From Synechococcus sp. (GTDB lineage Bacteria; Cyanobacteriota; Cyanobacteriia; Thermostichales; PCC-7336), in NCBI GenBank assembly GCA_051439425.1, contig JBFRWD010000056.1, forward strand, positions 1-21,468: a stretch of DNA of 21,468 nt, in the 5' to 3' direction. The notes beneath the pieces were generated by a model. The model was not told the DNA's origin and did no database searches. It saw nothing but the letters and a program-made list of their open reading frames with translations. This document shows, piece by piece, positions 3,123-19,253 of the stretch (the stretch's first letter is position 1; each line of letters starts with the position of its first letter). A program made the translations under genes and the position numbers.

Positions 3123-3740
3123 ATGCTAGTACCCGTCAAATATTTCTGCCGATTAAAGATACTCACTTTGCTGACTGGGGTTGGCTTAATGGGGATGGTG
3201 GCCTTTTTTAATCCTCCAGCGGTTTCTCAGCAAGCCGAGCTCCGTCAACTAGAGGAGTTTCTAGCCCCACCTCCCACCGCATTTCCTGAGCCGCAACAAT
3301 TACCAGCAGCAGCTCCGCTTCCGGCAGTGGTCCCCGAACAGTTCTCTACTCCTGACAATACTGCTGCCCCGGTTCGAAATAATCCGTCCAATCCTCAAGT
3401 CCCTCAAGAACGTCCTTCTCAAGTCAGCAATCCTCGCAACCCTTCTCCCGCTCGCCCTGGAACCGAGCGGGTTGAAAGCTCGAATGTTGCAGTCAGGGCG
3501 ACTAGTATTCCCCGCCTAGAATTAGGACCGGAATATGGAGAGGGGAACTTCATTGTGTTGATGACATACGATGGAGAAGATAGCCTTACACTTGCTCGAG
3601 AGTATTCGGCAGGTGCGTTTGTCAAACAGGTTGAGGGGGATCCGTACATTCAATTGGCGGTATTCGATCAACTAGAATATGCGCGTCACTTGGCGAGTCG
3701 TCTGCGCAACCAAGGGCTGTCAGTACTGGTAGCCAATTAA
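3123..3740 (+). CDS. Secreted Pro-rich protein with a C-terminal cyanobacterial SPOR-like (peptidoglycan-binding) domain
   Basis: Basic then hydrophobic N-terminus ending PAVS/Q (signal peptide), P/N/Q-rich linker, and a C-terminal YIQLAVFDQLEYARHLASRLRNQGLSVLV resembling the SPOR pattern Q-L-G-x-F...A...L...G. Confidence 0.65.
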   Translation: MLVPVKYFCRLKILTLLTGVGLMGMVAFFNPPAVSQQAELRQLEEFLAPPPTAFPEPQQLPAAAPLPAVVPEQFSTPDNTAAPVRNNPSNPQVPQERPSQVSNPRNPSPARPGTERVESSNVAVRATSIPRLELGPEYGEGNFIVLMTYDGEDSLTLAREYSAGAFVKQVEGDPYIQLAVFDQLEYARHLASRLRNQGLSVLVAN

Positions 3741-3979
3741 TAGTTAGGCATACTAGAGCACATCTAGTCCGAATAGGCTTTATGGCATCTTTATTGCACC
3801 ATATTTGCTGTTGCGAGAGACCTGCGTGTCTGTGGGCGGACTTGCCTCCACTGAAACTATTGACATGCAATTTGAGCAAGTTACTGCATGCGAGTCTCAA
3901 GACGGGATAACCTAGTGGTTCACCGCTAAGAATTACATTGGGTTCGGGAGCGACCTAGCAAAATCTGCAACATGCCTCT

Positions 3980-6187
3980 ATGACTGAAATTGGTCAACTG
4001 CTAAAAAGTCGGTATTTGATTTCAAACCTTCTGAGTGGAGGAGGGTTTTCAGTCACTTATCTAGCGAAGGATACTCACCTACCTGATTACCCGGATTGCG
4101 TTGTCAAGCAACTCCGACTGTTAAGCAACGATCTGCAGCAGGTAGAGAAAGTTCGAGAGTTTTTCTTCAACGAAGCCAAAATGTTGAGGAAACTGGGAGC
4201 CATTCACGGTCAGATTCCCGAGCTGCTTGCATACTTTACCGACGAAGACAGCGAGAACTTCTACATCGTTCAAGAACACGTTCCGGGCAAAACACTCAAG
4301 CAAATCCTGGGAACCGACCTCAGGCTGACAGAGCCAGAGGTTATATACATTCTGAAAGAGGCTCTCGAAGTCCTTGAATTTGTCCACTCCTACAATGTTA
4401 TCCACCTCGATATCAAACCCGACAATTTAATTTTGCGAGAGAGTGATTTCAAGATTGCTCTGATCGATTTTGGGTCGGTTAAGCAAGTCCGCACCCAGAT
4501 GGCGACATCCAACAGTCTGACCCCCCAGACGACCACTCTAGGCACGCCCGGATACATGCCATGCGAGCAGTCGTTCGGTCGCCCTAAACTCAGTAGCGAC
4601 TTCTATGCTCTGGGCATGGTTGCAATCCGAGCCCTGACGGGAATTCATCCGAAAGAGTTGGAGGAGGATTTAGCAACGGGTGAAGTGATTTGGAAAGAAA
4701 GGACTCACATCCGGCCCGAACTCAAAACCCTCATCGATCAAATGGTGCGCTACCACTTCAACCAGCGCCCTCAGTCAGCTTCAGATATTTTGATAGAGCT
4801 GGCTAAGCTTTCATCCTTCTATTCCGAAGATGTCACCTGTTGTTCGGCTCGTTTGAAACGGATGGTGGGTGGCAGCGACGAGCCTTCCCAAACCCCAATT
4901 AGCCATGACCCAACTCGGCCTAGCGATGCCATGAGGGCACGTTATGAAATGCCGACCATCGTGGCGTCTGAGCCTGCATCTCTAACAGATGCTCAGCAAG
5001 AATCTCATCAACATGCTGCTGCGTCGTCTCCCTCTTCTTCACCAACTCCTGCACTTTCGCCTACTTCCTCCTCTTCATCGTCCCCTTCGAAGCCCTCCCT
5101 TACTTCCATGCCACCAGGGTTAATCTCGAAGTCCGATCCCCAAGTAACGCGCGCACCATCCACAGCTAGCACACCCCGTTCCCAGCGAGCATCTGCCCAG
5201 CCGGTATCTACTCCGATTCCACAGGACTCCTTAGCCCCTGTGAATGCCTATCCAGATACTATTCTTGTTCCTCCTCAAACAAGAGGAACTGCTCCAGTAA
5301 ATTCTGACACGCCGCCTTCCGGTGCGGCCGATCCGAGGTTTAAGGGAGATCGGTTTACTGACTCGAAGGAGGTGGAATATCTCCCTGACAGCGATAAGAG
5401 CTTGCGCCGTCAGTTCAAGATCAAAGTGGCTCCAGTGTTAGTCGTGACAACGGCAATTGGGTTGGGAATGCTGGCCACTTGGGGGGGAGGCCTCTATCTC
5501 GAACACCAGGCTTACACGGCAGAAGATCGCCAGCAATTGCGTCAAGCTCGTGAGTTGGCAGATAGCGATGTGGATCGGGCGATTGAAATTGCTAGAGGTA
5601 TTCAATCAAATTCTCCGTTCTATCCAGAAGCAGTCGATCTACTTGAAGATTTGCAGGGCCAGCAAGTTCTCGCTCGGGAACGGGAGTTGCTTACTCAGGC
5701 GCGTGACCTATCGGTGACAGATTTGGAGGCCGCACTGACCACTGTTCGCGAAATTCCGTCGTCTTCGCCACTGTATGAAGAGGCTCGTTTGGAGGGGTTG
5801 GAATGGCAGGGACAGCTCTTGGAGCAGGACTTGGCCGGCAGTAGTCAAACGTTGGCTACTCTGGCGCCGCAGATTGAGATTCGCGCTGACGTTCTGTATT
5901 TGCAATATGACGGTTCCTCCGATGAAAAATTGATCGGAGAAGAGGGGATTCGACGGGTTGCGATCGCGACCATGTCTGTCGTGCGCTCCCGCTATACCGA
6001 TTTTGACCAGCTGGTTGCATATCCCGAAGGAGAAAACATACAAGGGATGCTCGATCTCGATCTGTGGACGTCTTACGAGCAGGGTGAAATTAGCCTGGAG
6101 CAGCTCCTGTCACAAATCAAAGTGGGAGACCGTTCCTCTAATACTCCCGACCAAGTAGCAAGCTACACTTCAGGACGCTGGGGATAA
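3980..6187 (+). CDS. Transmembrane Hanks-type Ser/Thr protein kinase (cyanobacterial Spk/Pkn type) with a periplasmic repeat domain
   Basis: LSGGGFSVTY, CVVKQL, EAKML, HLDIKPDN, DFG, GTPGYMPCEQ and SDFYALG. These are followed by an S/P/T-rich linker, one TM helix (VAPVLVVTTAIGLGMLATWGGGLYL, about 5426-5500), two 51-aa helical repeats and a C-terminal domain. Confidence 0.95.
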   Translation: MTEIGQLLKSRYLISNLLSGGGFSVTYLAKDTHLPDYPDCVVKQLRLLSNDLQQVEKVREFFFNEAKMLRKLGAIHGQIPELLAYFTDEDSENFYIVQEHVPGKTLKQILGTDLRLTEPEVIYILKEALEVLEFVHSYNVIHLDIKPDNLILRESDFKIALIDFGSVKQVRTQMATSNSLTPQTTTLGTPGYMPCEQSFGRPKLSSDFYALGMVAIRALTGIHPKELEEDLATGEVIWKERTHIRPELKTLIDQMVRYHFNQRPQSASDILIELAKLSSFYSEDVTCCSARLKRMVGGSDEPSQTPISHDPTRPSDAMRARYEMPTIVASEPASLTDAQQESHQHAAASSPSSSPTPALSPTSSSSSSPSKPSLTSMPPGLISKSDPQVTRAPSTASTPRSQRASAQPVSTPIPQDSLAPVNAYPDTILVPPQTRGTAPVNSDTPPSGAADPRFKGDRFTDSKEVEYLPDSDKSLRRQFKIKVAPVLVVTTAIGLGMLATWGGGLYLEHQAYTAEDRQQLRQARELADSDVDRAIEIARGIQSNSPFYPEAVDLLEDLQGQQVLARERELLTQARDLSVTDLEAALTTVREIPSSSPLYEEARLEGLEWQGQLLEQDLAGSSQTLATLAPQIEIRADVLYLQYDGSSDEKLIGEEGIRRVAIATMSVVRSRYTDFDQLVAYPEGENIQGMLDLDLWTSYEQGEISLEQLLSQIKVGDRSSNTPDQVASYTSGRWG

Positions 6188-6333
6188 GGTCGTATACTAA
6201 CTCCGATACATAAAATATTAGATCGGTGTATAGTTTGGGAACGAAAAAACCACAGCTTCGCCCTCCTTTAGTACGGCATCTGAGGTCATGCCTGTCAGTC
6301 GCGTGCCTTACCACTTGGCCAGTGAAGTGGATT

Positions 6334-7023
6334 ATGGCTCGTTCGCTGGGGCGTTTAGCAGTCTGTAGTTTTTCTGGGGTCACAGTTATCGCATCGCCTG
6401 CTGTTGTTTGGGCACAGCCGGACGAACTTCAGCAATTGGAGGATTTCCTTAGTCCACCGCCGACAGAGTCGCTTCAATTGCAGACTGCTCCAGCTCAGCC
6501 TCCTTACCCCGCTCAATCTTTGCCGGCTCAACCTCTTCCCCCAGCCTCCCCGATTCCTCATGCTATTCCTACAACCTCTGCCGAATCTACGGTGGTTACT
6601 CCTCCTTCTAGGCAGCAGCCCTTACCCAGTCAGCCCCTAGTCCAGCCTCAACTAGCAGTTCTGTCCCTCAATAGCCACAGCCCCGGAACATTAGGTAATC
6701 CTAGACAATTGCACGAGGGGTACTACCAGGATTTGTTTCAGTTTGAGGGGCAAATGGGAGAATTGATTCTGCTCAATTTAATTGGTAGCGACGATCCCAG
6801 AATGGAATTGGACCCTCGCTTGCAGTTAATTGCTCCTGATGGCTCAATCGTGGCTGAGGATGATAACGGTGGATATGACTCTGCCAGGGGAGATGCGCGC
6901 ATTGTTCTCATGCTCCCCGACACAGGCTCTTACACGGTTGTGGTCACAACTGCGGATCCTGACGATCGCGGGCGCTACACCCTAGGATTGTTAGAAGTTG
7001 ACGACCCCAGCCAGATTCAGTGA
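6334..7023 (+). CDS. Secreted Pro/Gln-rich protein with a single C-terminal PPC (pre-peptidase C-terminal) domain
   Basis: ATG 6334 gives a plausible signal peptide (MARSLGRLAVCSFSGVTVIASPAVVWA/Q). The C-terminal DLFQFEGQMGE...LDPRLQLIAPDGSIVAEDDNGG...DARIVLMLPDTGSYTVVVT...GRYTL is a typical PPC signature. The ORF-track start at 6226 is probably too far upstream. Confidence 0.8.
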   Translation: MARSLGRLAVCSFSGVTVIASPAVVWAQPDELQQLEDFLSPPPTESLQLQTAPAQPPYPAQSLPAQPLPPASPIPHAIPTTSAESTVVTPPSRQQPLPSQPLVQPQLAVLSLNSHSPGTLGNPRQLHEGYYQDLFQFEGQMGELILLNLIGSDDPRMELDPRLQLIAPDGSIVAEDDNGGYDSARGDARIVLMLPDTGSYTVVVTTADPDDRGRYTLGLLEVDDPSQIQ

Positions 7024-7319
7024 TGATACGCATGCTGGCAAGTACTGCTATCACATCCTGAGACTGACAATTTTTCCCATTCTCTAGCTCTCATCAGATG
7101 TCGTGTGACCGGAGAGTGGGTTGATACCTTCAATCAACCTCTGATAGTACAAAATGCAGTCACTCAATAGGGGAACAAAACGCACTTCATCGTTTTCACG
7201 TCTCCTATTACACTGGGAAATAACTGGCCACCTTATTTCTCAATCGTGTTGTTACGGATTCTCTGACCGATCGAGATACCGTCAAGAACTCATCACTCTC
7301 TAATTGGTTGAACGGATTT

Positions 7320-9221
7320 ATGGATGCAATCACTCTTGCTTGGACAGAAGCAGGCCAGCGAAAGACACAGACATTCGTCGATACCTACTCGACCAAGACC
7401 CCCGGAACGATTCGAGTCGGGCGAGACCCTGCTCAGTGTGATGTTGTGCTTCCCTCTCTGAGCGCTAGCGATCGCACTGTTTCACGACTTCATGTAGAGA
7501 TTGCGTTCAACCCCACCCATTCATCGTTCTACCTGCGCAACCTCAAGCCGCAAAACCCCGTTCAGGTGGATGGTTCTGCCGTGACGAACGAAGCGGTTCT
7601 GCAAGAGGGCAGCACTATTCGCCTGGGCAAAGTGGAAGTGGAAGTGGCGGCGGTAGCTGCTGTGCCCGCGACGATTTTTGTCTCTGCAAGCGAGCGGCCC
7701 ACACTGGTATATAAGCCTGCCGAAGATACGCACGTGGAGGCTGAACGTTCCGCACAACGACACGAAATTCAATCGCGTAATACGCCTCAAGAGCCTCGCA
7801 ATGGAGTGACTGCTTTCGATCAACCTACCGAACTGGAGGAGCAGGCTGAGGTAAGTCACCAACTTAATGTGACGGAATCAGCAGACGAGCAGGTGTCTGC
7901 TGCGGAAAATGGCACTTCCCCCCCGACTAGTCAATCAATACCGGGTCAATCAGTAACGGGTCAGTCGAGTACGGCTGTAGTGCAGCCAGCTCTTAGCCCA
8001 GTCGATCGCGCACAAGATTTTCTCAACTCTATTCCCAAACCTTCGTTTTCTGTCCAGTCCTTACTCAAACCTGCTCCATTAGCGATTGGTGCGGCTGTTC
8101 TTGCTGCGGTCGGGTTGTTGCAATGGCAGCGTCTCAACACCATCACCAGTACTAAAGCATTTGTCAACAGTCGTATTATTTCGATTACTGCCCCTGTTTC
8201 CGGGGAGTTGCGCCTGCAAAACATCAATTCCGGGCAGTTGGTCCAAGAAGGAGTGCTGCTAGCCAATATTTTTGACCCTCGTAACATCGAGCTACAACGC
8301 ACTCAGCAGCGATTAAAAAATGAACTAGAAAATCTAATCTATCGTCAGCAACAGTTGCAAGTGCAGTTGAATGACCGGCGCGAATCCTTTCAGCGAATTC
8401 AAGATGAAGCTAGTACTCAACAATCCCTCCAGCAAGGCTCGACCGAGTTCTTAGAGGCCGAGCTAGATGATGCCATCGCTACGGCCCGAGAAGCTCAAGC
8501 CAATGTTGTGCAAGTTCGGGATTTGGCAGCTGAAGGGACAATGACCGACCAAGAAGTTGAATTGGCTGAAGCTGCCCGGGATAGTGCTGAGGATGTCGTC
8601 AACCAACTGCGTGAGCAATTGGCCTCAGCGCGACGAGGGGATGAAACCGAACAGCAGTCTTCATCGGTTTCAACTGTTGTCGAAAATCGCAGGTCAGCTC
8701 TTCAAAATGAAGTTGCTAATTTTGAGCAAGTATTAGAAAACTTACAGGCTGAATCCGATGACAAACAACGCCAACTGGATTCCATTACCGACCGGCTTTC
8801 TCGTCAAACGCCAGCCAACATTACCAGTCCCACTGCTGGAGAAATCTGGACGGTAGAATACCAACCCGGACTATCCAACACGGTGGTAGTGTCTGGAGAT
8901 GGCATTGTCGAGTTGGCGCAGTGCGAAGGGTTATGGGTTGAAGCTGTGGTTTCATCCCGCGATGCCACCAATATTTCCGTAGGTGGTGATGCCAGCATCT
9001 TTATTCCCGATGGGTTCCGCCACCAGAAACTTGATGGGGTTGTGCGGGAAATCCGCACTTCGTCCGAGCCTGTAATGGTGAGTGCCGATGAGGTGGCTAT
9101 TTCACCCGAGAATTTGGGGCCTGGAGAGGTGGCAGTCATGGTGGATTTGAAGTCACCTGAAAACTCTGGGAATTTCTGCAATATTGGCCGCACGACTGAA
9201 GTTCGCTTCTCACGCAGTTAG
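7320..9221 (+). CDS. FHA domain fused to a HlyD-like membrane-fusion (periplasmic adaptor) protein
   Basis: N-terminal cyanobacterial FHA (ITLAWTEAG...GTIRVGRDPAQCD...TVSRLHVEI...NPVQVDG...IRLGK), S/T/Q/E-rich linker, TM helix (APLAIGAAVLAAVGLLQW), lipoyl half ITAPVSGEL...GQLVQEG, long coiled coil, second half ITSPTAGEIW, and beta-barrel LWVEAVV...C-NIGRTTEVRF. Start at ATG 7320 is preferred over TTG 7308. Confidence 0.85.
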   Translation: MDAITLAWTEAGQRKTQTFVDTYSTKTPGTIRVGRDPAQCDVVLPSLSASDRTVSRLHVEIAFNPTHSSFYLRNLKPQNPVQVDGSAVTNEAVLQEGSTIRLGKVEVEVAAVAAVPATIFVSASERPTLVYKPAEDTHVEAERSAQRHEIQSRNTPQEPRNGVTAFDQPTELEEQAEVSHQLNVTESADEQVSAAENGTSPPTSQSIPGQSVTGQSSTAVVQPALSPVDRAQDFLNSIPKPSFSVQSLLKPAPLAIGAAVLAAVGLLQWQRLNTITSTKAFVNSRIISITAPVSGELRLQNINSGQLVQEGVLLANIFDPRNIELQRTQQRLKNELENLIYRQQQLQVQLNDRRESFQRIQDEASTQQSLQQGSTEFLEAELDDAIATAREAQANVVQVRDLAAEGTMTDQEVELAEAARDSAEDVVNQLREQLASARRGDETEQQSSSVSTVVENRRSALQNEVANFEQVLENLQAESDDKQRQLDSITDRLSRQTPANITSPTAGEIWTVEYQPGLSNTVVVSGDGIVELAQCEGLWVEAVVSSRDATNISVGGDASIFIPDGFRHQKLDGVVREIRTSSEPVMVSADEVAISPENLGPGEVAVMVDLKSPENSGNFCNIGRTTEVRFSRS

Positions 9222-9341
9222 GCTGGCTGAATTGAGGAGTTACCAAGTTCTGGCATGTGGCTGCTGGTTGAAAAATTCTGCTGGTTACGCGACTCGGCTA
9301 GTTAGGCAACTCAATAGTTCAGGGTTCCATAGAGACTCAAG

Positions 9342-10574
9342 TTAACCAAACTGCTGCTGAAGTTCTTCCGTCGTGATTGTGATTGTGCGCTCTTGGCCAT
9401 TGCGATTGATAAGGAATTCAACCTCTTCACCTACAGCCCGTCCGGAGATTGAGCTTTGAACCTGGGCCGCAGTACTGACAGACTCTCCGTCTAGCGCGAC
9501 AATCACATCCCCCGATCTCAGTCCTGCGGATGCTGCTGGGGAGCGCTCCAGAACATCAATCACCACAACACCTGATTCCAAACTGGGGTCAATTGTCAGG
9601 GAACTGGGGTTGGGAGATCTGGCAATCTCCTCTAGTAATTCGGCGTCAAGGGTGTTCATACGAATACCCACAAAGGAGCGCACGACTCGCCCGGCCGAAA
9701 TGAGCTGATCGATGACGATCTGAGCCTCATTGACTGGGATAGCAAAGCCGATTCCTTCTGCCCCTCGGACGATTGCTGTATTGATACCCACCACTCGACC
9801 ATCAATATCAATCAGCGGGCCACCGGAATTTCCGGGATTGATGGCAGCATCGGTCTGGATGAAGTCAATCCGGCGATCGCCGACACGGATTTCCTGGCTG
9901 GTGCGACCCAGTGCACTGACAATACCTGCCGTGAGACTGTTGCTTAACCCCAGCGGACTACCCAGGGCAATCACCCATTCCCCCGGCCGCAGCAAACCAG
10001 AGTCTCCGAACTCTACAAATGGGAGCGGATTATCGTCTACGTCGAGCTGGATAACGGCGAGGTCTGTTAAGGCATCTCGACCCACAACCGATCCGGTGAA
10101 TTCTCGACCATCGGATAGAACGGCTGCCACCATGTCGGCGTTACCTACCACGTGGGCATTGGTGACAATGGTACCGGTTGCATCAATAAGAAAGCCCGAC
10201 CCAGAGCCCCCAATAAAGTCTTGCCTGGGGTTAGAGAACCTGTTTTGTCCCCGATCGTTAGGGCCAAATTCTTCGAAAAACTGTTGGAGGCGATCGGAAT
10301 TTTGCCCCCTACTATCAGGCACGATGGGCTCAATTTGGACGACGGCGGGCGCAACCTCTTGTGCTGCATCGGCAATGAAATTGCTGCCGTAGGTTCGGCC
10401 AGACTCGTCGGGCTCGTTGTCTAAGTCGAAGACCGGTCCCGAATCAGCCTGAGGTTCCTCTGTCTCGGGGGCAGTCGGTTCGGGTTCCTCGGGAGGTGGA
10501 GAACTACAAGCTGCGATCGCCGCCACCAAGGCGAATGCTAGAGGCTTGACCAACCGAGAGGAGGAAAAAGGCAT
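9342..10574 (-). CDS. HtrA/DegP-family serine protease (trypsin domain + one PDZ), predicted lipoprotein
   Basis: Lipobox IAAC; GSGSGF, TNAHVV (His), TDLAVI (Asp), IQTDAAINPGNSGGPL (Ser); PDZ with SPAASAGLRSGDVI. Confidence 0.95.
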   Translation of the reverse strand: MPFSSSRLVKPLAFALVAAIAACSSPPPEEPEPTAPETEEPQADSGPVFDLDNEPDESGRTYGSNFIADAAQEVAPAVVQIEPIVPDSRGQNSDRLQQFFEEFGPNDRGQNRFSNPRQDFIGGSGSGFLIDATGTIVTNAHVVGNADMVAAVLSDGREFTGSVVGRDALTDLAVIQLDVDDNPLPFVEFGDSGLLRPGEWVIALGSPLGLSNSLTAGIVSALGRTSQEIRVGDRRIDFIQTDAAINPGNSGGPLIDIDGRVVGINTAIVRGAEGIGFAIPVNEAQIVIDQLISAGRVVRSFVGIRMNTLDAELLEEIARSPNPSSLTIDPSLESGVVVIDVLERSPAASAGLRSGDVIVALDGESVSTAAQVQSSISGRAVGEEVEFLINRNGQERTITITTEELQQQFG

Positions 10575-10775
10575 GTGCAATCGTCGATAGCTGAGCCGAC
10601 GCTTGAAGACTGTGGCGAGAACTAGAGGAATACTATCTTAGTTGATAGACAATTCCATCGTCCGAATTGGCAGTATCGATCCCTAGCAGTAGAGGTCGTC
10701 GGATACAACGCCGAATTCCGTGCCGGTTGGGAGCAGATGCTTGCCAATAGTACGCAAGACTCACGATTTCGAGAT

Positions 10776-11663
10776 TTATCGGTTAATCCATACCGCCATA
10801 CCCTGGAGAAGTCGTAAGGCCCGTTGGCGAGCACTGGGTTGGGTAAGCAGTCCTTGAGACGGACTCAACAGAAAGGCTGTGAAGAAACAGGCAAAAACCA
10901 CCAGCACAATTGCAGCCCCGGAAGGAACATCCAGGTAATAGCTGGCGTACATTCCGGCAATGCTGGCAAAGGCTCCAATTGCCCCTCCCAGCACCATCAT
11001 TTGATGCAGTTCCTTGACCAGGAGGTAGGCCGTCATGGCAGGGCCAACCAACATGGCAATGACCAACAAAATTCCAACCGTTTGCAGGCTGGCCACTACG
11101 GTTAAGGTAATTGCCGTGATGGTTCCAGCGTAGTACCACCGCACGGGCAAACCTGCGGCTTGTGCTCCAACAGGGTCGAGACTATAAAGCAATAGCTCTT
11201 TATAGAACAAAACAGTGGCGATGCAGATGGAGGCAGCGATCGCTGCTGTCAACCACAACTCCGACTGCGTCACCCCCAGAATATTGCCGAACAGCACGTG
11301 AATGAGATCGATCCGATTGGCCCCTGGCAGAACGCTAACTAACGTGACGCCAATTGCTAAAAACGTCGATAGCACTAAGGCCATGACGGTATCGATCTTG
11401 AGTTTGGATTGCGATTCAATCCAGGCCAGTAATAGGGCACTCAAAACACCGGCAACAACGGCTCCTACCGATAGGGGTAGACCGAGAACATAGGCCACTG
11501 GTAAACCCGCCAGCACCGAGTGGGAAATGGCATCTCCTAACATCCCCATTTGGCGAACCAGCATGAAGCTGCCCACAACAGAGCACAGGATGCCTAACAT
11601 GACGCCGATTGCGATCGCCGTCCGCATAAATTCCAGCTCCAGTGGGGCGACGAGCCAATCCAT
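10776..11663 (-). CDS. mntB: Mn/Zn ABC transporter permease
   Basis: ABC-3 family motifs GDAISHSVLAG, HVLFGNILGV, DPVGAQAAGL, VGILLVIAMLVGP and YYLDVPSGAAIVL. Mn specificity is inferred from the promoter motif. Confidence 0.88.
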   Translation of the reverse strand: MDWLVAPLELEFMRTAIAIGVMLGILCSVVGSFMLVRQMGMLGDAISHSVLAGLPVAYVLGLPLSVGAVVAGVLSALLLAWIESQSKLKIDTVMALVLSTFLAIGVTLVSVLPGANRIDLIHVLFGNILGVTQSELWLTAAIAASICIATVLFYKELLLYSLDPVGAQAAGLPVRWYYAGTITAITLTVVASLQTVGILLVIAMLVGPAMTAYLLVKELHQMMVLGGAIGAFASIAGMYASYYLDVPSGAAIVLVVFACFFTAFLLSPSQGLLTQPSARQRALRLLQGMAVWINR

Positions 11664-11713
11664 AATTACCTGCGAAAAGCGACCCAAAATAAAATCAAGA
11701 GTTTACGGAAGTA

Positions 11714-12448
11714 TTACACGGCGGCAGCTTGTAGCGGTTGGCCGTAAGCCCGGGTCAGATTATCGACAGTCATAACGTCTGTCCGAGGACCGATCGCCAC
11801 TAAGTTCTTGTTGAGCAACACCAATCGGTCAAAATGATTCAGACTCTCGCCTAAATCGTGATGAACCACCAGTAGCGTTTTAGCTCGCTCTTTCAGTTCG
11901 CGGAAGATATCGAAAATAATGTCTTCCGTTCTGCGATCGACCCCCGTAAACGGCTCGTCTAGGAAAAAGACATCTGCTTGTTTGGCCAAGGCTCGTGCCA
12001 AAAATACCCGCTGCCGTTGCCCTCCCGATAGAGCGCTAATTGGGCGATCTCGCAGATCCCACACATCGACTCGTTTTAATGCCTGTTCTGCCAACTGAAG
12101 CACTGCTTTTCCCGGTCGCCGAAACAGTCCGGTTTCTACCGTCTGGGCGGTCATGACAAAGTTCCAGACGGAAATAGGGTAATCCCAGTCGATTTGCGAT
12201 TGCTGGGGAACGTATGCCACCCGAGATCGCTGGCGAGTCAAGGGGCGATCTCCTAACAGGACAGTTCCATGGCTAGTCGGAATCAAGCCGAGCATTGCTT
12301 TGAGCAGCGTACTTTTTCCCGCTCCATTTGGCCCCAAAATACCCAGAACTTGACCGCCATCGGCAGTGAAATTCACATCGTCCAGGGCGTGAATACCTCG
12401 GTACTGAACGAACAAGTCTCGCACGGAGAGGCGATCGATATTCAGCAT
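11714..12448 (-). CDS. mntA: Mn/Zn ABC transporter ATP-binding subunit
   Basis: GPNGAGKST, AYVPQ...DWDYP, LSGGQRQRVFLARAL, LDEPFTGVD and HHDL; strong AGGAGG Shine-Dalgarno 7 nt upstream of the ATG. Confidence 0.9.
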   Translation of the reverse strand: MLNIDRLSVRDLFVQYRGIHALDDVNFTADGGQVLGILGPNGAGKSTLLKAMLGLIPTSHGTVLLGDRPLTRQRSRVAYVPQQSQIDWDYPISVWNFVMTAQTVETGLFRRPGKAVLQLAEQALKRVDVWDLRDRPISALSGGQRQRVFLARALAKQADVFFLDEPFTGVDRRTEDIIFDIFRELKERAKTLLVVHHDLGESLNHFDRLVLLNKNLVAIGPRTDVMTVDNLTRAYGQPLQAAAV

Positions 12449-12620
12449 TGCTCTACCTCCTTCTGAGTGGCGTCAGACCGAACTCGGTCGTGTGTGAAGT
12501 CCGAGGAATCTACCTGTTCGGTATATCGAGTTGCTCAAATTCGACACAGCGTGCAATGACTGAAGGAACCTTAAGCCCAGCAGTACTGACAGCAACAGAT
12601 GGTGTCGTAGCCCAGACAAT

Positions 12621-12717
12621 AATGACGAGAAAATGACCCAAAAATGAATCAAATATGAAAACAGCATACCAAACTCACCGTTCATTGTGCAGAATAAAGA
12701 TGAAACGATTATGAAAA
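12621..12717 (+). promoter_or_regulatory. ManR-like direct-repeat operator array in the divergent mntAB/mntC promoter
   Basis: ATGA cores at 12622, 12633, 12644 and 12655 (exact 11-bp period) and at 12700 and 12711. GATGAAACGATTATGAAAA (12699-12717) matches 15/19 of the Synechocystis mntCAB ManR site TATGAAAAGAATATGAGAA as I recall it. Confidence 0.7.
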
Positions 12718-12836
12718 CGTGATTGGTATTGGGTCGACACACTTAGAGACCATATTGGTGTGGCCTGGGCTGCTGCTTCATTTCATTGCACCAATCGAAG
12801 GTTGAGCCTTTGGGCAAGGGATATAGGAAAGGTTTT

Positions 12837-13802
12837 ATGGCATTTGAGTGGCAACGTTTTAAACGCTCCATAGCACTGATTTCTGGGATGGGGGCTGCGG
12901 CAATCGCACTTGGTTGTTCATCTGGAGGAGCAGACAACTCGGCGACAAGCGTAGGTAAACCTTTGGTGGTGGCGTCCTACAGCGTGTTGTGCGACATAAC
13001 GTCTCAGATTGCTGAAGACACAGTTGAGTTGGACTGCCTGATTGATTACGACCAAGATCCGCACACCTATGAAGGGACGCCATCAGACCGACGGGCGATC
13101 GAGCAGGCGGATTTAATCCTCTATGCAGGCATGAACTTTGAACCCTCCATTATCCAGATGGTGAGCGCGAGTTCAAATCCCTCCGCCCAAATTGCCGTTC
13201 ACGACCAGTCGGTGCAAAATCTCATTGAATACAATGCTGACGGGCAGCCGGTGCCAGATCCTCACATTTGGCACGACGTAAACAATGGGCTACGCATGGT
13301 GGAGACCATTCACGATGCATTAACAACGCTTTCTCCTGAGAACTCCGGGGTGTATGCCGAGAATAGCGAAGACTTGCAGGCCCAACTGCGTGAACTAGAT
13401 GCTTGGATAGTCGAACAAATTCAGACCATACCGGAAGCGCAACGACAGTTAGTAACCACCCACGATGCGATGAGTTATTACTCTCGCGCCTACGGTTTGA
13501 CAGTTGCCGGAACGTTGTTGGGACTGTCTCCCGAAGAAGAGCCTACAGCCGCTCGGGTTAGCGAACTGGTCACGAGCGTCCGAGAAATCGGAGTTCCAAC
13601 TCTGTTTGCAGAGCTAACGACCAACGATCGCGTCTTGCGCACCGTGGCGGCAGAAGCTGGTGTGCAGATTTCGGATAATGTTTTGATTGCTGATGGGGTT
13701 GGAGCACAGGGAACTCCTGAAGGCAGCTATCAAGGAATGTTGGTCTATAACACTTGCACGATTGTGGAAGGGTTGGGGGGAGAATGCGAATTAGGCCCGT
13801 AG
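12837..13802 (+). CDS. mntC: Mn/Zn ABC transporter substrate-binding lipoprotein (TroA/PsaA cluster A-I)
   Basis: Lipobox ALGC after ATG 12837 (AGGAAAGG upstream); QDPHTYE, PDPHIWH, VTTHDAMSY and IADG metal-ligand motifs; divergent from the ATPase/permease genes. Confidence 0.85.
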   Translation: MAFEWQRFKRSIALISGMGAAAIALGCSSGGADNSATSVGKPLVVASYSVLCDITSQIAEDTVELDCLIDYDQDPHTYEGTPSDRRAIEQADLILYAGMNFEPSIIQMVSASSNPSAQIAVHDQSVQNLIEYNADGQPVPDPHIWHDVNNGLRMVETIHDALTTLSPENSGVYAENSEDLQAQLRELDAWIVEQIQTIPEAQRQLVTTHDAMSYYSRAYGLTVAGTLLGLSPEEEPTAARVSELVTSVREIGVPTLFAELTTNDRVLRTVAAEAGVQISDNVLIADGVGAQGTPEGSYQGMLVYNTCTIVEGLGGECELGP

Positions 13803-16677: not shown

Positions 16678-18129
16678 CTATGCCACTTCCGACTTTGGCT
16701 GACCCGTCTTTAACTGGGGTCCATTTGCCTGTGGATCGGTCATTGGTGGATCGATGGCCTCTTCCAGCCATACTGTTGGGCTTTGGCTGGGTTGCTGAGG
16801 TAGCTGCAGCATACCAACCTCGGCCAAGCGGACTACGGTGGTGAGAGCCGTCACCAGTTCGGGATCAAACCGAGAGCCACTGAGTGCCTCACATTCCGCC
16901 AATGCATCGTTAAGGGACATGGCTTCGCGATCGCCACGGGGTTGAGTCAGATCTTGGAAAAACGCGACCAAACCGAGAATGCGGGAGCCCAGCGGAATGT
17001 TAGTGCCTTTGAGACTATCTGGCAGACCGCCGCCGTTCCAATACTCCAGTTGATGCTTGACAATCGCAATGACTGACTTCAGCTCGGGCATGGATGAAAG
17101 CAACTGCGCCCCAATCGAACCGCGATCGCGCCAAAACGTAGGGCTACGCTCGTCCAATTCGGACGCGGGGAGAGTAAAAACCTCGGCGGGTGCTTCTGAC
17201 AAACCGATACGAAAGAGTAGACCGGCTAGACGCAAACGGCGCAGCTCAATTGTGGGAATATCTAAAATCTGTCCGATAGTCTCCGAGAGGGCGGAAACTT
17301 GAAGGGATGCAACGGAGTTAAACGGGTCACGCTTGTCCACCCGCTGTGCCATACGCAAAAATGCCTGCAATTTATTGGCCGTAATATTTCGGTTGAGCCG
17401 TTTTGCCTGTCCCTCTAGATCCCATAGCTCGCGGTTTTGACGGTGGGTGGCAACCAGCTGCTCCTGGCTACTTTGCAAGTAGGTGACAATGCGCGAAACC
17501 ACACCACTCAAATCTGCAGGGGGGCAATCGGTACAGGTACCAATGTCTGCCATCTGAGTTTTCAATTGGGCGGCGAGTTCGGGATTGTAGGGTTCAATTC
17601 GAGATATTGCGATCTCTGCTGCTTCGCTGACTAAATCTTGCTCGAAGGTCCAGAGACCGTAAAACTTGCGCTCGACATCTTGGCCAGGCTGCATCCCCTC
17701 CCAGTATTCCGCCGACTCCAGCTCGTGGCACAATACCATCGCTGAATAGTTAGGGGCCAAAATAATGAGATTCCACTCCTCCACCCAGCTATCCGCCGGA
17801 TCTAAGTCGACGAGCGTAACATTATCCAGCTCACCAGTCTGGTGGGTGTGAAATCCGCTATCGGCAACCGCAGCAACGATAACGTGCCGAGATTTTTGAG
17901 CGATCTCTAAATAGCGATCGGCTTCTTGCAGGTACCACTTCCCCCGCTGAAACGTGACCAGCACCAGTGGATTGCTATCATCGCTACCCTCAGAGGTCTG
18001 TAGAATGTGATCCTCTAGAGCATGACAGAGGGCCACCAAAGTATTTTTGAAATAGACGCCAAAGCTGGAGGGTAGACGCTCTTCAGGTAAAGACGCCTTC
18101 AGCTGATTGAGAGTGGACTCCGGACGCAT
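16678..18129 (-). CDS. DICT sensory domain + degenerate HD-GYP-like domain protein
   Basis: N-terminal YFKNTLVALCHALED...TFQRGKWYLQEADRY...EWNLIILAP...LCHEL...RKFYGLWTF is the DICT pattern. The C-terminal RLAGLLFRIG...HQLEYWNGGGLPDSLKGTNIPLGSRIL...GSRFDP is an HD-GYP fold with substituted motifs. Confidence 0.85.
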   Translation of the reverse strand: MRPESTLNQLKASLPEERLPSSFGVYFKNTLVALCHALEDHILQTSEGSDDSNPLVLVTFQRGKWYLQEADRYLEIAQKSRHVIVAAVADSGFHTHQTGELDNVTLVDLDPADSWVEEWNLIILAPNYSAMVLCHELESAEYWEGMQPGQDVERKFYGLWTFEQDLVSEAAEIAISRIEPYNPELAAQLKTQMADIGTCTDCPPADLSGVVSRIVTYLQSSQEQLVATHRQNRELWDLEGQAKRLNRNITANKLQAFLRMAQRVDKRDPFNSVASLQVSALSETIGQILDIPTIELRRLRLAGLLFRIGLSEAPAEVFTLPASELDERSPTFWRDRGSIGAQLLSSMPELKSVIAIVKHQLEYWNGGGLPDSLKGTNIPLGSRILGLVAFFQDLTQPRGDREAMSLNDALAECEALSGSRFDPELVTALTTVVRLAEVGMLQLPQQPSQSPTVWLEEAIDPPMTDPQANGPQLKTGQPKSEVA

Positions 18130-18440: not shown

Positions 18441-19253
18441 TCAAATTCCTAGCGAAATAACGGTGGGAACATCATGTAATCCTGAAGACGTGCCCATTTC
18501 GTTAATGGCGTGCTCTTCATCGCTGAGGTTGGATGTGCCGGCAAATTGAATGCACTTGCCTTGTTCCAAGGCGACGATGGTCCGAGTAATCGAGTAGATC
18601 GAGCACTTGAGCCGTGCAGCCAGTTCCCACAAGGTGCAATTGTTATCAATCACATTTGGCAATCCGGAAAAATTTGTACCAAATGTCAATTGAGCCAGCA
18701 TATCCGGGTTGATGACGGTAGGGACTGAACTGGGGGAAATTGCTTTCCAGCCTTTTTGATCCCAGCGCTCAACTAGCTTCGCCACATCTGGCCACACTTT
18801 ATTGATGTTGATAGAAACTAGCGGTGCTTCCTCAAACGTGTCAAGCGACTGCCAAGTCATCTTGTAGTTGTTAACGGCAGAGTTGCCTTCGTGGTTGAGT
18901 TCTTGCAGTGCCACCTCAAATAAGATTTCGCAGACACTACTGCCCAGAATTTTGATTGCTCTGGGTTCGGCGATCGCGTTTTTCACGATCAGCTCGTTCA
19001 GAACCAAGTAATTCCATTCGTTTTCTGGGTAACGAAACTCCCCTTGAGGAAGGTTCGAGCGATAGCGCGCCACTTGTCGTTGCCAGCGCTGGAGGGGAAA
19101 CATGCCGCCAGCGTCTGCCACAAGGCTGCCTGCCAAAAACAGTAACCTCCAGGCGGTTCCGTTATTGTTTGTGATGTTGAACACGCCAGTGAAATCAGGC
19201 TGAGAGCACAGCTTCAGATAGGTACTGAGTGTGGAGCAGATGGCAGTAGGCAT
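18441..19253 (-). CDS. PatA-family N-terminal (PATAN/DUF4388-like) domain protein lacking a receiver domain
   Basis: FTGVFNI...WRLLFLAGSLV...GGMFPLQRWQRQV, W-x-Y-x-x-L, EILFEV, W...G...ISP...P and TLWELA match the PATAN + linker region of PatA-type regulators. It stops where the REC domain would start. Confidence 0.72.
   Translation of the reverse strand: MPTAICSTLSTYLKLCSQPDFTGVFNITNNNGTAWRLLFLAGSLVADAGGMFPLQRWQRQVARYRSNLPQGEFRYPENEWNYLVLNELIVKNAIAEPRAIKILGSSVCEILFEVALQELNHEGNSAVNNYKMTWQSLDTFEEAPLVSININKVWPDVAKLVERWDQKGWKAISPSSVPTVINPDMLAQLTFGTNFSGLPNVIDNNCTLWELAARLKCSIYSITRTIVALEQGKCIQFAGTSNLSDEEHAINEMGTSSGLHDVPTVISLGI

Follow-up and report, generated by a model that had tools for sequence, protein, structure and literature searches.

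We analysed a 21,468-nucleotide stretch of DNA from Synechococcus sp. (contig JBFRWD010000056.1; the whole stretch is called the window, and its genome assembly, to which the contigs C60, C80, C85, C175 and C180 also belong, is called G000). Between rarA and a convergent htrA, the window carries four plus-strand genes encoding a SPOR-like protein (gene 1), a receptor-type Ser/Thr kinase (gene 2), a PPC protein (gene 3) and a fusion of an FHA domain with a HlyD-type membrane-fusion adaptor (gene 4, protein P0004). Four consecutive same-strand genes with these domains had been described in the first-pass annotation of this DNA, and open reading frames (ORFs), Pfam matches and hydropathy confirm that description. 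The genes and their parts are the following:

3123..3740, plus strand: gene 1, 205 aa, predicted secreted, with a SPOR-like C-terminal domain
3228-3278, plus strand: shared N-terminal motif in gene 1, followed by a Pro-rich linker
3459-3737, plus strand: SPOR-like domain of gene 1
3980..6187, plus strand: gene 2, 735 aa, single-pass Hanks Ser/Thr kinase
3980-4819, plus strand: kinase domain of gene 2, followed by a Ser/Pro-rich linker
about 5420-5500, plus strand: membrane helix of gene 2, followed by the ectodomain
6334..7023 (alternative GTG start at 6226), plus strand: gene 3, predicted secreted
6412-6462, plus strand: shared motif in gene 3, followed by a Pro-rich linker and the PPC domain
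7320..9221 (alternative start at 7308), plus strand: gene 4, FHA, linker, membrane helix and HlyD in one frame
7320-7655, plus strand: FHA domain of gene 4, followed by a disordered linker
7671-7673, plus strand: codon of Thr122, an invariant Thr in the gene 4 linker
about 8061-8126, plus strand: membrane helix of gene 4
about 8130-9218, plus strand: HlyD adaptor of gene 4
9342..10580, minus strand: htrA/hhoA protease gene (context), convergent, at the position held by a GT2-PilZ synthase in the related genome G002

The genes are separated by 239, 146 (38 with the GTG start of gene 3) and 296 bp, and a scan for promoters and terminators stayed at chance level (6 promoter-like sites versus 4.5 ± 2.3). 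Envelope location was read from hydropathy, not from a signal-peptide predictor; each protein has a single hydrophobic anchor or signal stretch (residues 11-29, 481-499, 44-62 and 252-270 for genes 1 to 4), and P0004 has a further hydropathy peak where its FHA domain ends (residues 109-127). All four genes are under purifying selection, which rules out pseudogenes or relics. A misassembly at the HlyD-htrA junction is ruled out as well, as the junction is identical in the related genome G003 and a contig of the independent run X2 spans positions 8803-9898.

The adaptor and the synthases beside its relatives

Pfam recognises both an FHA domain (E 2e-12) and HlyD_3 (E 3e-11) in the single ORF of gene 4, with HlyD_D23 also above its cut-off, and the HlyD part matches the structures of MacA and EmrA. 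The protein has the architecture of a membrane-fusion adaptor, namely a single helix, a barrel-sandwich, a coiled-coil and a beta-barrel, and no part of the adaptor has been lost, both conserved cysteines and the barrel at the C-terminus being present. Canonical phosphothreonine (pThr) binding by FHA domains relies on a G-R pair, S-x-x-H and an Asn. The corresponding residues G38-R39, S59-x-x-H62 and N83 occur in all 12 fusion rows compared (11 distinct proteins); the Gly following the Asn is replaced by Pro, likewise in related stand-alone FHA proteins. The same 12 rows also contain a Thr behind the FHA domain (P-x-T122-[IV]), a candidate site that we liken to T152/T210 of mycobacterial Rv1747 (PMC8339232).

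FHA and HlyD are joined in one frame in 3 of 41 genomes (G000, G002 and G003). A protein collection yielded 11 fusion matches, among them the protein of the window itself, two partial sequences and one whose HlyD part does not differ from that of G003. An insensitive profile search (A4) showed no FHA fusion outside this group among the 16 proteins returned; none of 208 metagenome stretches and one of 65 genome stretches were confirmed in contig scans, the latter on a contig that agrees in number and length with G003:C36. Within the sequences searched, the fusion was thus found in one genus only. Other signalling domains occupy the FHA position elsewhere. A receiver-fused adaptor (L114:127-1953 in G307:C88; REC) and an EAL-fused one (L115:5780-7900 in G122:C33) each precede a GT2 gene, and a further adaptor (L116:6231-8075 in G215) has an N-terminal extension of about 200 aa with no Pfam match.

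The neighbours of related adaptors point to a function in polysaccharide synthesis. A profile built from six HlyD parts matched 35 of 301 genomes of the phylum at E 1e-25, and 24 adaptor loci were compared, comprising 17 of 41 profile matches, mostly whole-adaptor ones, and seven earlier loci. In 21 of the 24 a GT2 synthase-like gene lies one or two genes downstream, the exceptions being G003 and two stand-alone adaptors. Within the clade of P0004 (SH-aLRT 95; support 95-100), a cellulose-synthase-like gene comes directly after the adaptor in all eight other members for which the locus is known, a count that leaves out G000, G003 and P0014; Pfam confirms GT2 plus PilZ for four of these eight synthases. 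The trees of adaptors, synthases and the gene 1 domain are quick or FastTree reconstructions with no bootstrap values. The complete genome G002 has kinase, PPC, FHA/HlyD and synthase (a 723-aa GT2 protein) in this order, with gaps of 18, 246 and 84 bp. Clade, loci of the relatives and G002 gene order together uphold one of the two options raised in the first-pass annotation, that gene 4 belongs to a polysaccharide-synthase system. A type I protein-secretion adaptor is ruled out, since the neighbours of its relatives are GT2 synthases. P0004 groups with adaptors of the two-gene adaptor-synthase kind, and an approximately unbiased (AU) test rejects a placement beside the two stand-alone adaptors. 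In G033, an operon of the two-gene kind coexists with another that comprises glycoside hydrolase, adaptor and synthase. As P0004 stands apart from both the stand-alone and the hydrolase-linked adaptors, it is probably a paralogue of XcsB, known from the cyanobacterial cellulose system discussed below, and not XcsB itself, in a comparison that held no named XcsB sequence.

The G002 synthase is identical to P0016, which carries the NCBI label Synechococcus sp. PCC 7336, so that a cultured strain appears to be available. Its close relatives include named Thermosynechococcus and Synechococcus synthases; the nearest are 55-59% identical, the named one stemming from another genus, and the distribution of the adaptor-synthase clade is patchy. 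Downstream of the synthase on the same strand, G002 has two substrate-binding protein genes, SBP_bac_3-like and OpuAC (L021:14670-16967), with gaps of 71 and 33 bp.

A cognate PilZ synthase with RxxxR and QxxRW is present in G002; members of this clade were not found in G000 (tblastn and phmmer) or in G003, both of which yielded only a synthase of the stand-alone clade that lacks RxxxR. This absence is an apparent loss, and a likely rather than a certain one because the assemblies are 96% (G000) and 85% (G003) complete. Pfam PilZ has no match in either genome; G000 holds 14 GGDEF matches and a TolC-like gene (C85). The first-pass annotation had placed the partner of gene 4 elsewhere in the genome. 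No synthase lies beside gene 4, as this implies, but with the partnering clade not found in the G000 assembly, an unlinked partner would need a change of partner. The sole long synthase of G000 (C180:10491-12887; L054:6492-8888) is 41% identical to the G002 enzyme and groups with a second, unlinked G002 synthase, both adjoining a DUF4079 gene. Stand-alone cellulose-type synthases of this kind (that on C180 and 15 relatives) are widespread in cyanobacteria and often lie beside a DUF4079 gene. All 16 lack RxxxR at the PilZ position and keep QxxRW, whereas RxxxR is present in 15 of 15 adaptor-linked synthases, and the stand-alone clade is therefore predicted from sequence not to be activated by cyclic di-GMP (c-di-GMP) in the usual way.

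The two ends of the adaptor have evolved at different rates. Identity to G003 amounts to 96% for FHA, 94% for the kinase domain, 88% for the SPOR-like domain, 87% for PPC and 78% for the membrane helix plus HlyD, and that to G002 is 80% for FHA, 75% for the kinase and 45% for HlyD, which makes FHA the most conserved domain across the four genes. The membrane helix plus HlyD differs from that of G003 by a nonsynonymous divergence (dN) of 0.14 at near-saturated synonymous sites, a saturation that renders dN/dS values rough. Unique changes in the HlyD parts of G000, G003 and P0014 outnumber those in the G002 counterpart by a factor of two to four (15 of 15 tests, p 0.0022 or less); for G000 the ratio is 60:21, about threefold (p 1.5e-5), with p 0.0011 or less for all five outgroups, and part of the long HlyD branch is shared by P0014 and P0015. 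No such acceleration appeared in nine control tests on rpoB+gyrB, kinase, ectodomain, PPC, FHA and the stand-alone synthase (smallest p 0.17), which rules out a generally fast evolution of the G000 lineage. Acceleration of HlyD alone, with FHA conserved, suggests that change was concentrated at the end facing the partner and spared the sensor end.

The kinase and the secreted proteins

The kinase domain of gene 2 (Pfam Pkinase, E 2e-30) contains K43, E65, HLDIKPDN and DFG and is of the non-RD type. K43, E65, D144 and DFG are invariant in five of five orthologues, all of which read HLD for HRD, whereas the catalytic loops of the seven other kinases of G000 read HRD in six cases and HKD in one. 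Non-RD kinases are often independent of activation-loop phosphorylation; among the papers listed in our literature search, none dealt with such independence in cyanobacteria. With a beta3 Lys, a catalytic Asp, the DFG Asp and a single membrane helix, gene 2 has the sequence features of an active Hanks-type receptor kinase (catalytic triad as defined in bioRxiv 10.1101/2025.01.12.632604). A pseudokinase is ruled out by the intact triad.

The ectodomain (220 aa) consists of two helical TPR-like repeats and a domain of about 100 aa without assigned fold. In a single-sequence model, residues 1-100 are confidently built as helical hairpins, which backs the two helical periplasmic repeats claimed earlier, and residues 113-185 and 205-227 fall below a predicted local distance difference test score (pLDDT) of 50. 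A Foldseek search of the model against the PDB gave nothing at E 0.001 or better, and the matches in the ESM Atlas, scoring 0.76 and 0.85-0.86, came without a usable family. The full ectodomain occurs in 6 of 7 genomes of the family and in none of 23 of the sister family, the helical repeats alone are matched in six more distant genomes, and the kinase type was found only within its family.

In both gene 1 and gene 3 a hydrophobic stretch precedes the motif Q-x-x-E-L-x-Q-L-E-[ED]-F-L-x-P-P, after which come a Pro-rich linker and a small domain, SPOR-like in gene 1 and PPC in gene 3. The sharing of the motif is genuine (BLASTP E 1e-7), as the first-pass annotation had noted, but the motif also occurs outside the locus. 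Among the 18,875 six-frame ORFs of G000, three contain it (according to a hidden Markov model built including these three; next E about 2), and the third is an unlinked secreted PPC paralogue (C60:4007-4618; L027) that is also present in G003. Both small domains score under the Pfam cut-off (SPOR E 0.022 in gene 1, PPC E 0.011 in gene 3). The PPC cut-off is passed by the G002 orthologue and the C60 paralogue, that of SPOR by 11 of 14 scanned profile matches. Pfam SPOR aligned only partly in 8 of 10 members (gene 1: model positions 3-32), with a best E of 0.0014; the profile of the SPOR-like domain gathers 298 representatives, many of them long proteins with this domain at the end, and two of five looked-up relatives are named SPOR protein. 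Against PDB sequences the domain gave chance-level matches only.

The origin of gene 1 bears on the meaning of the shared motif. The C-terminal domain of gene 1 shares 62-64% identity with the one in a membrane-anchored SPOR-like protein (C80:14275-15291), a type of protein that 29 of 41 genomes contain, and clusters with copies of this type from the genus; the N-terminus of gene 1 matches the PPC family. Gene 1 is therefore likely to be a recent chimera that joins the 5' end of a PPC gene to a domain copied from the C80 protein, and such copying of the PPC-gene 5' end would explain why genes 1 and 3 share the motif. The motif is nevertheless 88% and 94% identical to its counterparts in G003, compared with 58% and 46% for the flanking linkers, which suggests that it still matters despite this origin.

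A tree of RpoB+GyrB resolves the genus as ((G000,G003),G001),G002 with G005, from another genus, as outgroup, so that G002 is the first branch. All four genes occur together in two of four genus genomes and kinase, PPC and FHA/HlyD in three of four. G003 has the complete set with flanks identical in order to the window, G002 lacks gene 1 at the locus, and G001 (99% complete) has only gene 1 and the kinase. In G005, where genes 1 and 4 are missing, the kinase and PPC genes are accompanied by a trypsin-like protease-FHA-FHA gene directly 5' of the kinase (L051:4373-6415 in G005:C34). In G006 the kinase lies 100 bp from a contig end and a PPC fragment starts another contig. A conserved four-gene system, as first envisaged, is accordingly not supported: the four genes are co-located in G003 and three of them in G002, but they form no fixed unit elsewhere. 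In all five assembled loci (G000, G001, G002, G003 and G005) a motif-bearing secreted protein directly adjoins the kinase, gene 1 alone in G001 and gene 3 alone in G002 and G005. The adaptor joins this pair in three of the five, which makes kinase plus motif protein the most stable link of the cluster.

Three further features lie elsewhere in the window. Three minus-strand genes at 10776-13802, whose order is also kept in G003, presumably encode a metal ABC transporter (substrate-binding protein, ATPase and permease), a label based on the translations. A DICT-CHASE6_C-HD_5 protein at 16678-18129 (minus strand) is likely a sensor of the cyclic-dinucleotide phosphodiesterase type. A 270-aa ORF at 18441-19253 (minus strand), without Pfam or NCBIfam match, presumably resembles the N-terminal part of PatA-type regulators.

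Proposed mechanism and rival explanations

By analogy of architecture, gene 4 is best read as an Alg44-like adaptor with an FHA domain in place of the c-di-GMP sensor. We tentatively propose, with somewhat less than even confidence, that the adjacent receptor-type kinase controls this synthase-family adaptor by Thr phosphorylation and might thereby add a phospho-switch to polysaccharide synthesis or export. Judged by its conserved residues, the FHA domain most probably binds pThr. The neighbouring kinase is by a small measure the favoured source of this pThr, which would be placed either on its own juxtamembrane linker or on Thr122 of the adaptor, in the manner of PknF and Rv1747. In G002 the phospho-input might gate the PilZ synthase together with c-di-GMP, the adaptor bridging to TolC in the manner of Alg44 and XcsB, a step for which we see the chances as evenly balanced. 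In the window lineage the adaptor may have been re-fitted to an unlinked synthase, the best candidate being the C180 enzyme without RxxxR; this is possible and rather doubtful. An action of the secreted PPC and SPOR-like proteins on the kinase ectodomain, by way of the N-terminal helix that they have in common, appears fairly unlikely. The assembled picture, a cellulose-type synthase switched by a receptor kinase via an FHA adaptor, with this input standing beside c-di-GMP in G002 and replacing it in the window lineage and with PPC and SPOR-like proteins as envelope-state ligands, is quite improbable as a whole. If true, it would be the cyanobacterial counterpart of wall-integrity kinases and CESA phosphoregulation in plants.

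Several observations weigh against kinase control of the adaptor. The cognate synthase was not found in G000 or G003, and among 14 genomes that have a synthase of the stand-alone clade, 9 yielded no full-length member of the gene 4 adaptor family, so that this clade does not generally need one. Together with the HlyD-specific acceleration, which the controls do not show and which could reflect relaxed constraint and not re-fitting, these findings favour a co-opted protein that, after loss of the synthase, serves as a kinase-linked trans-envelope scaffold or as the adaptor of another inner-membrane exporter and has no polysaccharide role. Yet the whole adaptor is retained, conserved cysteines and C-terminal barrel included, and an unlinked partner has precedents, both in two other genomes whose synthase-type adaptor (L102, L104) has no synthase nearby and in T. 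vulcanus, where XcsA and XcsB are described as unlinked (PMC12430437); we regard co-option as rather unlikely. The XcsAB-TolC model itself, on which the proposed export route leans, is described as not experimentally validated (PMC12430437).

Further adverse points concern the pairing of kinase and FHA domain. No FHA/HlyD or PPC orthologue was found in G001 though the kinase is kept, which means that the kinase does not need the adaptor. G000 contains 13 FHA domains and seven conventional Hanks kinases, and the nearest FHA relative of gene 4 in that genome adjoins a different kinase, on C175, where a second kinase cluster (G000:C175:3575-9301; L029) includes two FHA proteins, one of them closest to the gene 4 FHA; the C175 family is the likely donor of this domain. 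An equivalent of Thr122 is also present in two non-fused in-genus FHA paralogues, and Thr122 may thus be inherited. An adaptor-synthase operon could accordingly have landed behind an older kinase-PPC pair and gained an FHA domain read by another kinase, the genes not acting together. Such an accidental neighbourhood agrees with the C175 paralogue, with the independent loss of the four genes in different genomes, with the gap of 246-296 bp before gene 4, whose two weak promoter-like sites are not above chance, and with the patchy adaptor-synthase clade and the distant nearest relatives of the G002 synthase. Against it stand the kinase-PPC-FHA/HlyD order, which G002 has in common with G000/G003 despite different flanking genes, and the presence of an FHA neighbour of the kinase in two different arrangements, the genus fusion and the trypsin-FHA-FHA gene of G005. 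In addition, 2 of 12 FHA loci have a kinase at a distance of no more than 5 kb, where 0.22 would be expected (P about 0.02); this test is weak and counts the present locus. We therefore consider an accidental neighbourhood unlikely. The chain drawn in the first-pass annotation, in which both secreted proteins present the shared helix to the TPR-like repeats and all four products signal to an exporter, gains from the motif-bearing protein beside the kinase in every assembled locus, from the motif being far better conserved than its flanks and from the finding of ectodomain and motif-bearing proteins in family f1 only. It is nonetheless very unlikely, since the third motif protein is unlinked (C60), copying of the PPC-gene 5' end explains the motif sharing as well, and the chain is incomplete in G001, G002 and G005.

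Relation to known systems

Kinase control of the adaptor, the reading we prefer, can be set against three described systems. The literature searched (top listings, titles and abstract starts) contained no FHA-HlyD fusion and no kinase control of a cyanobacterial synthase, and neither "kinase" nor "phosphoryl" occurs in the main text of the review PMC12430437. An arrangement of adaptor and synthase is described for cyanobacterial cellulose synthases with HlyD-like partners, in particular for the XcsA-XcsB(-XcsC)-TolC system (T. vulcanus tll0007/tlr0903; S. elongatus 1398-1400 and 2151/2152; PMC12430437, PMC8892547). Gene 4 resembles it in its single-pass HlyD-like adaptor, in relatives lying beside a GT2 synthase with QxxRW and PilZ, and in the TolC-like gene of G000. 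It differs by its N-terminal FHA domain and linker, by adjoining a receptor kinase, and by belonging to the two-gene adaptor-synthase clade instead of the hydrolase-linked or stand-alone one, with the cognate synthase not found in G000.

In mycobacteria, PknF phosphorylates the FHA-bearing ABC transporter Rv1747 (PMC8339232). Both cases combine a membrane Ser/Thr kinase with a nearby FHA-bearing transport component and a conserved Thr in a disordered linker by the FHA domain. Gene 4, however, has one FHA domain on a periplasmic adaptor as opposed to two on an ABC transporter, and the kinase is of the non-RD type with a helical-repeat ectodomain and no phosphatase gene in the locus. A further kinase-FHA precedent is PpkA-Fha1 of type VI secretion.

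A parallel in architecture is Alg44 of the Pseudomonas alginate system, in which a cytoplasmic PilZ sensor, one membrane helix and a periplasmic membrane-fusion-like domain act on a GT2 synthase (PMC8892547, PMC4436075). The sensor-helix-membrane-fusion layout recurs in gene 4, but FHA replaces PilZ, so that the predicted input is pThr instead of c-di-GMP, and a TolC route is proposed for the gene 4 family in place of AlgK/AlgE. For synthase-dependent polysaccharide systems of bacteria, the control known in most cases is that by c-di-GMP. The reach of the present case is limited by the confinement of the fusion to one genus; together with the REC- and EAL-fused relatives, it nevertheless suggests that the cytoplasmic end of such adaptors is a reusable regulatory input, which would generalise the principle of Alg44.

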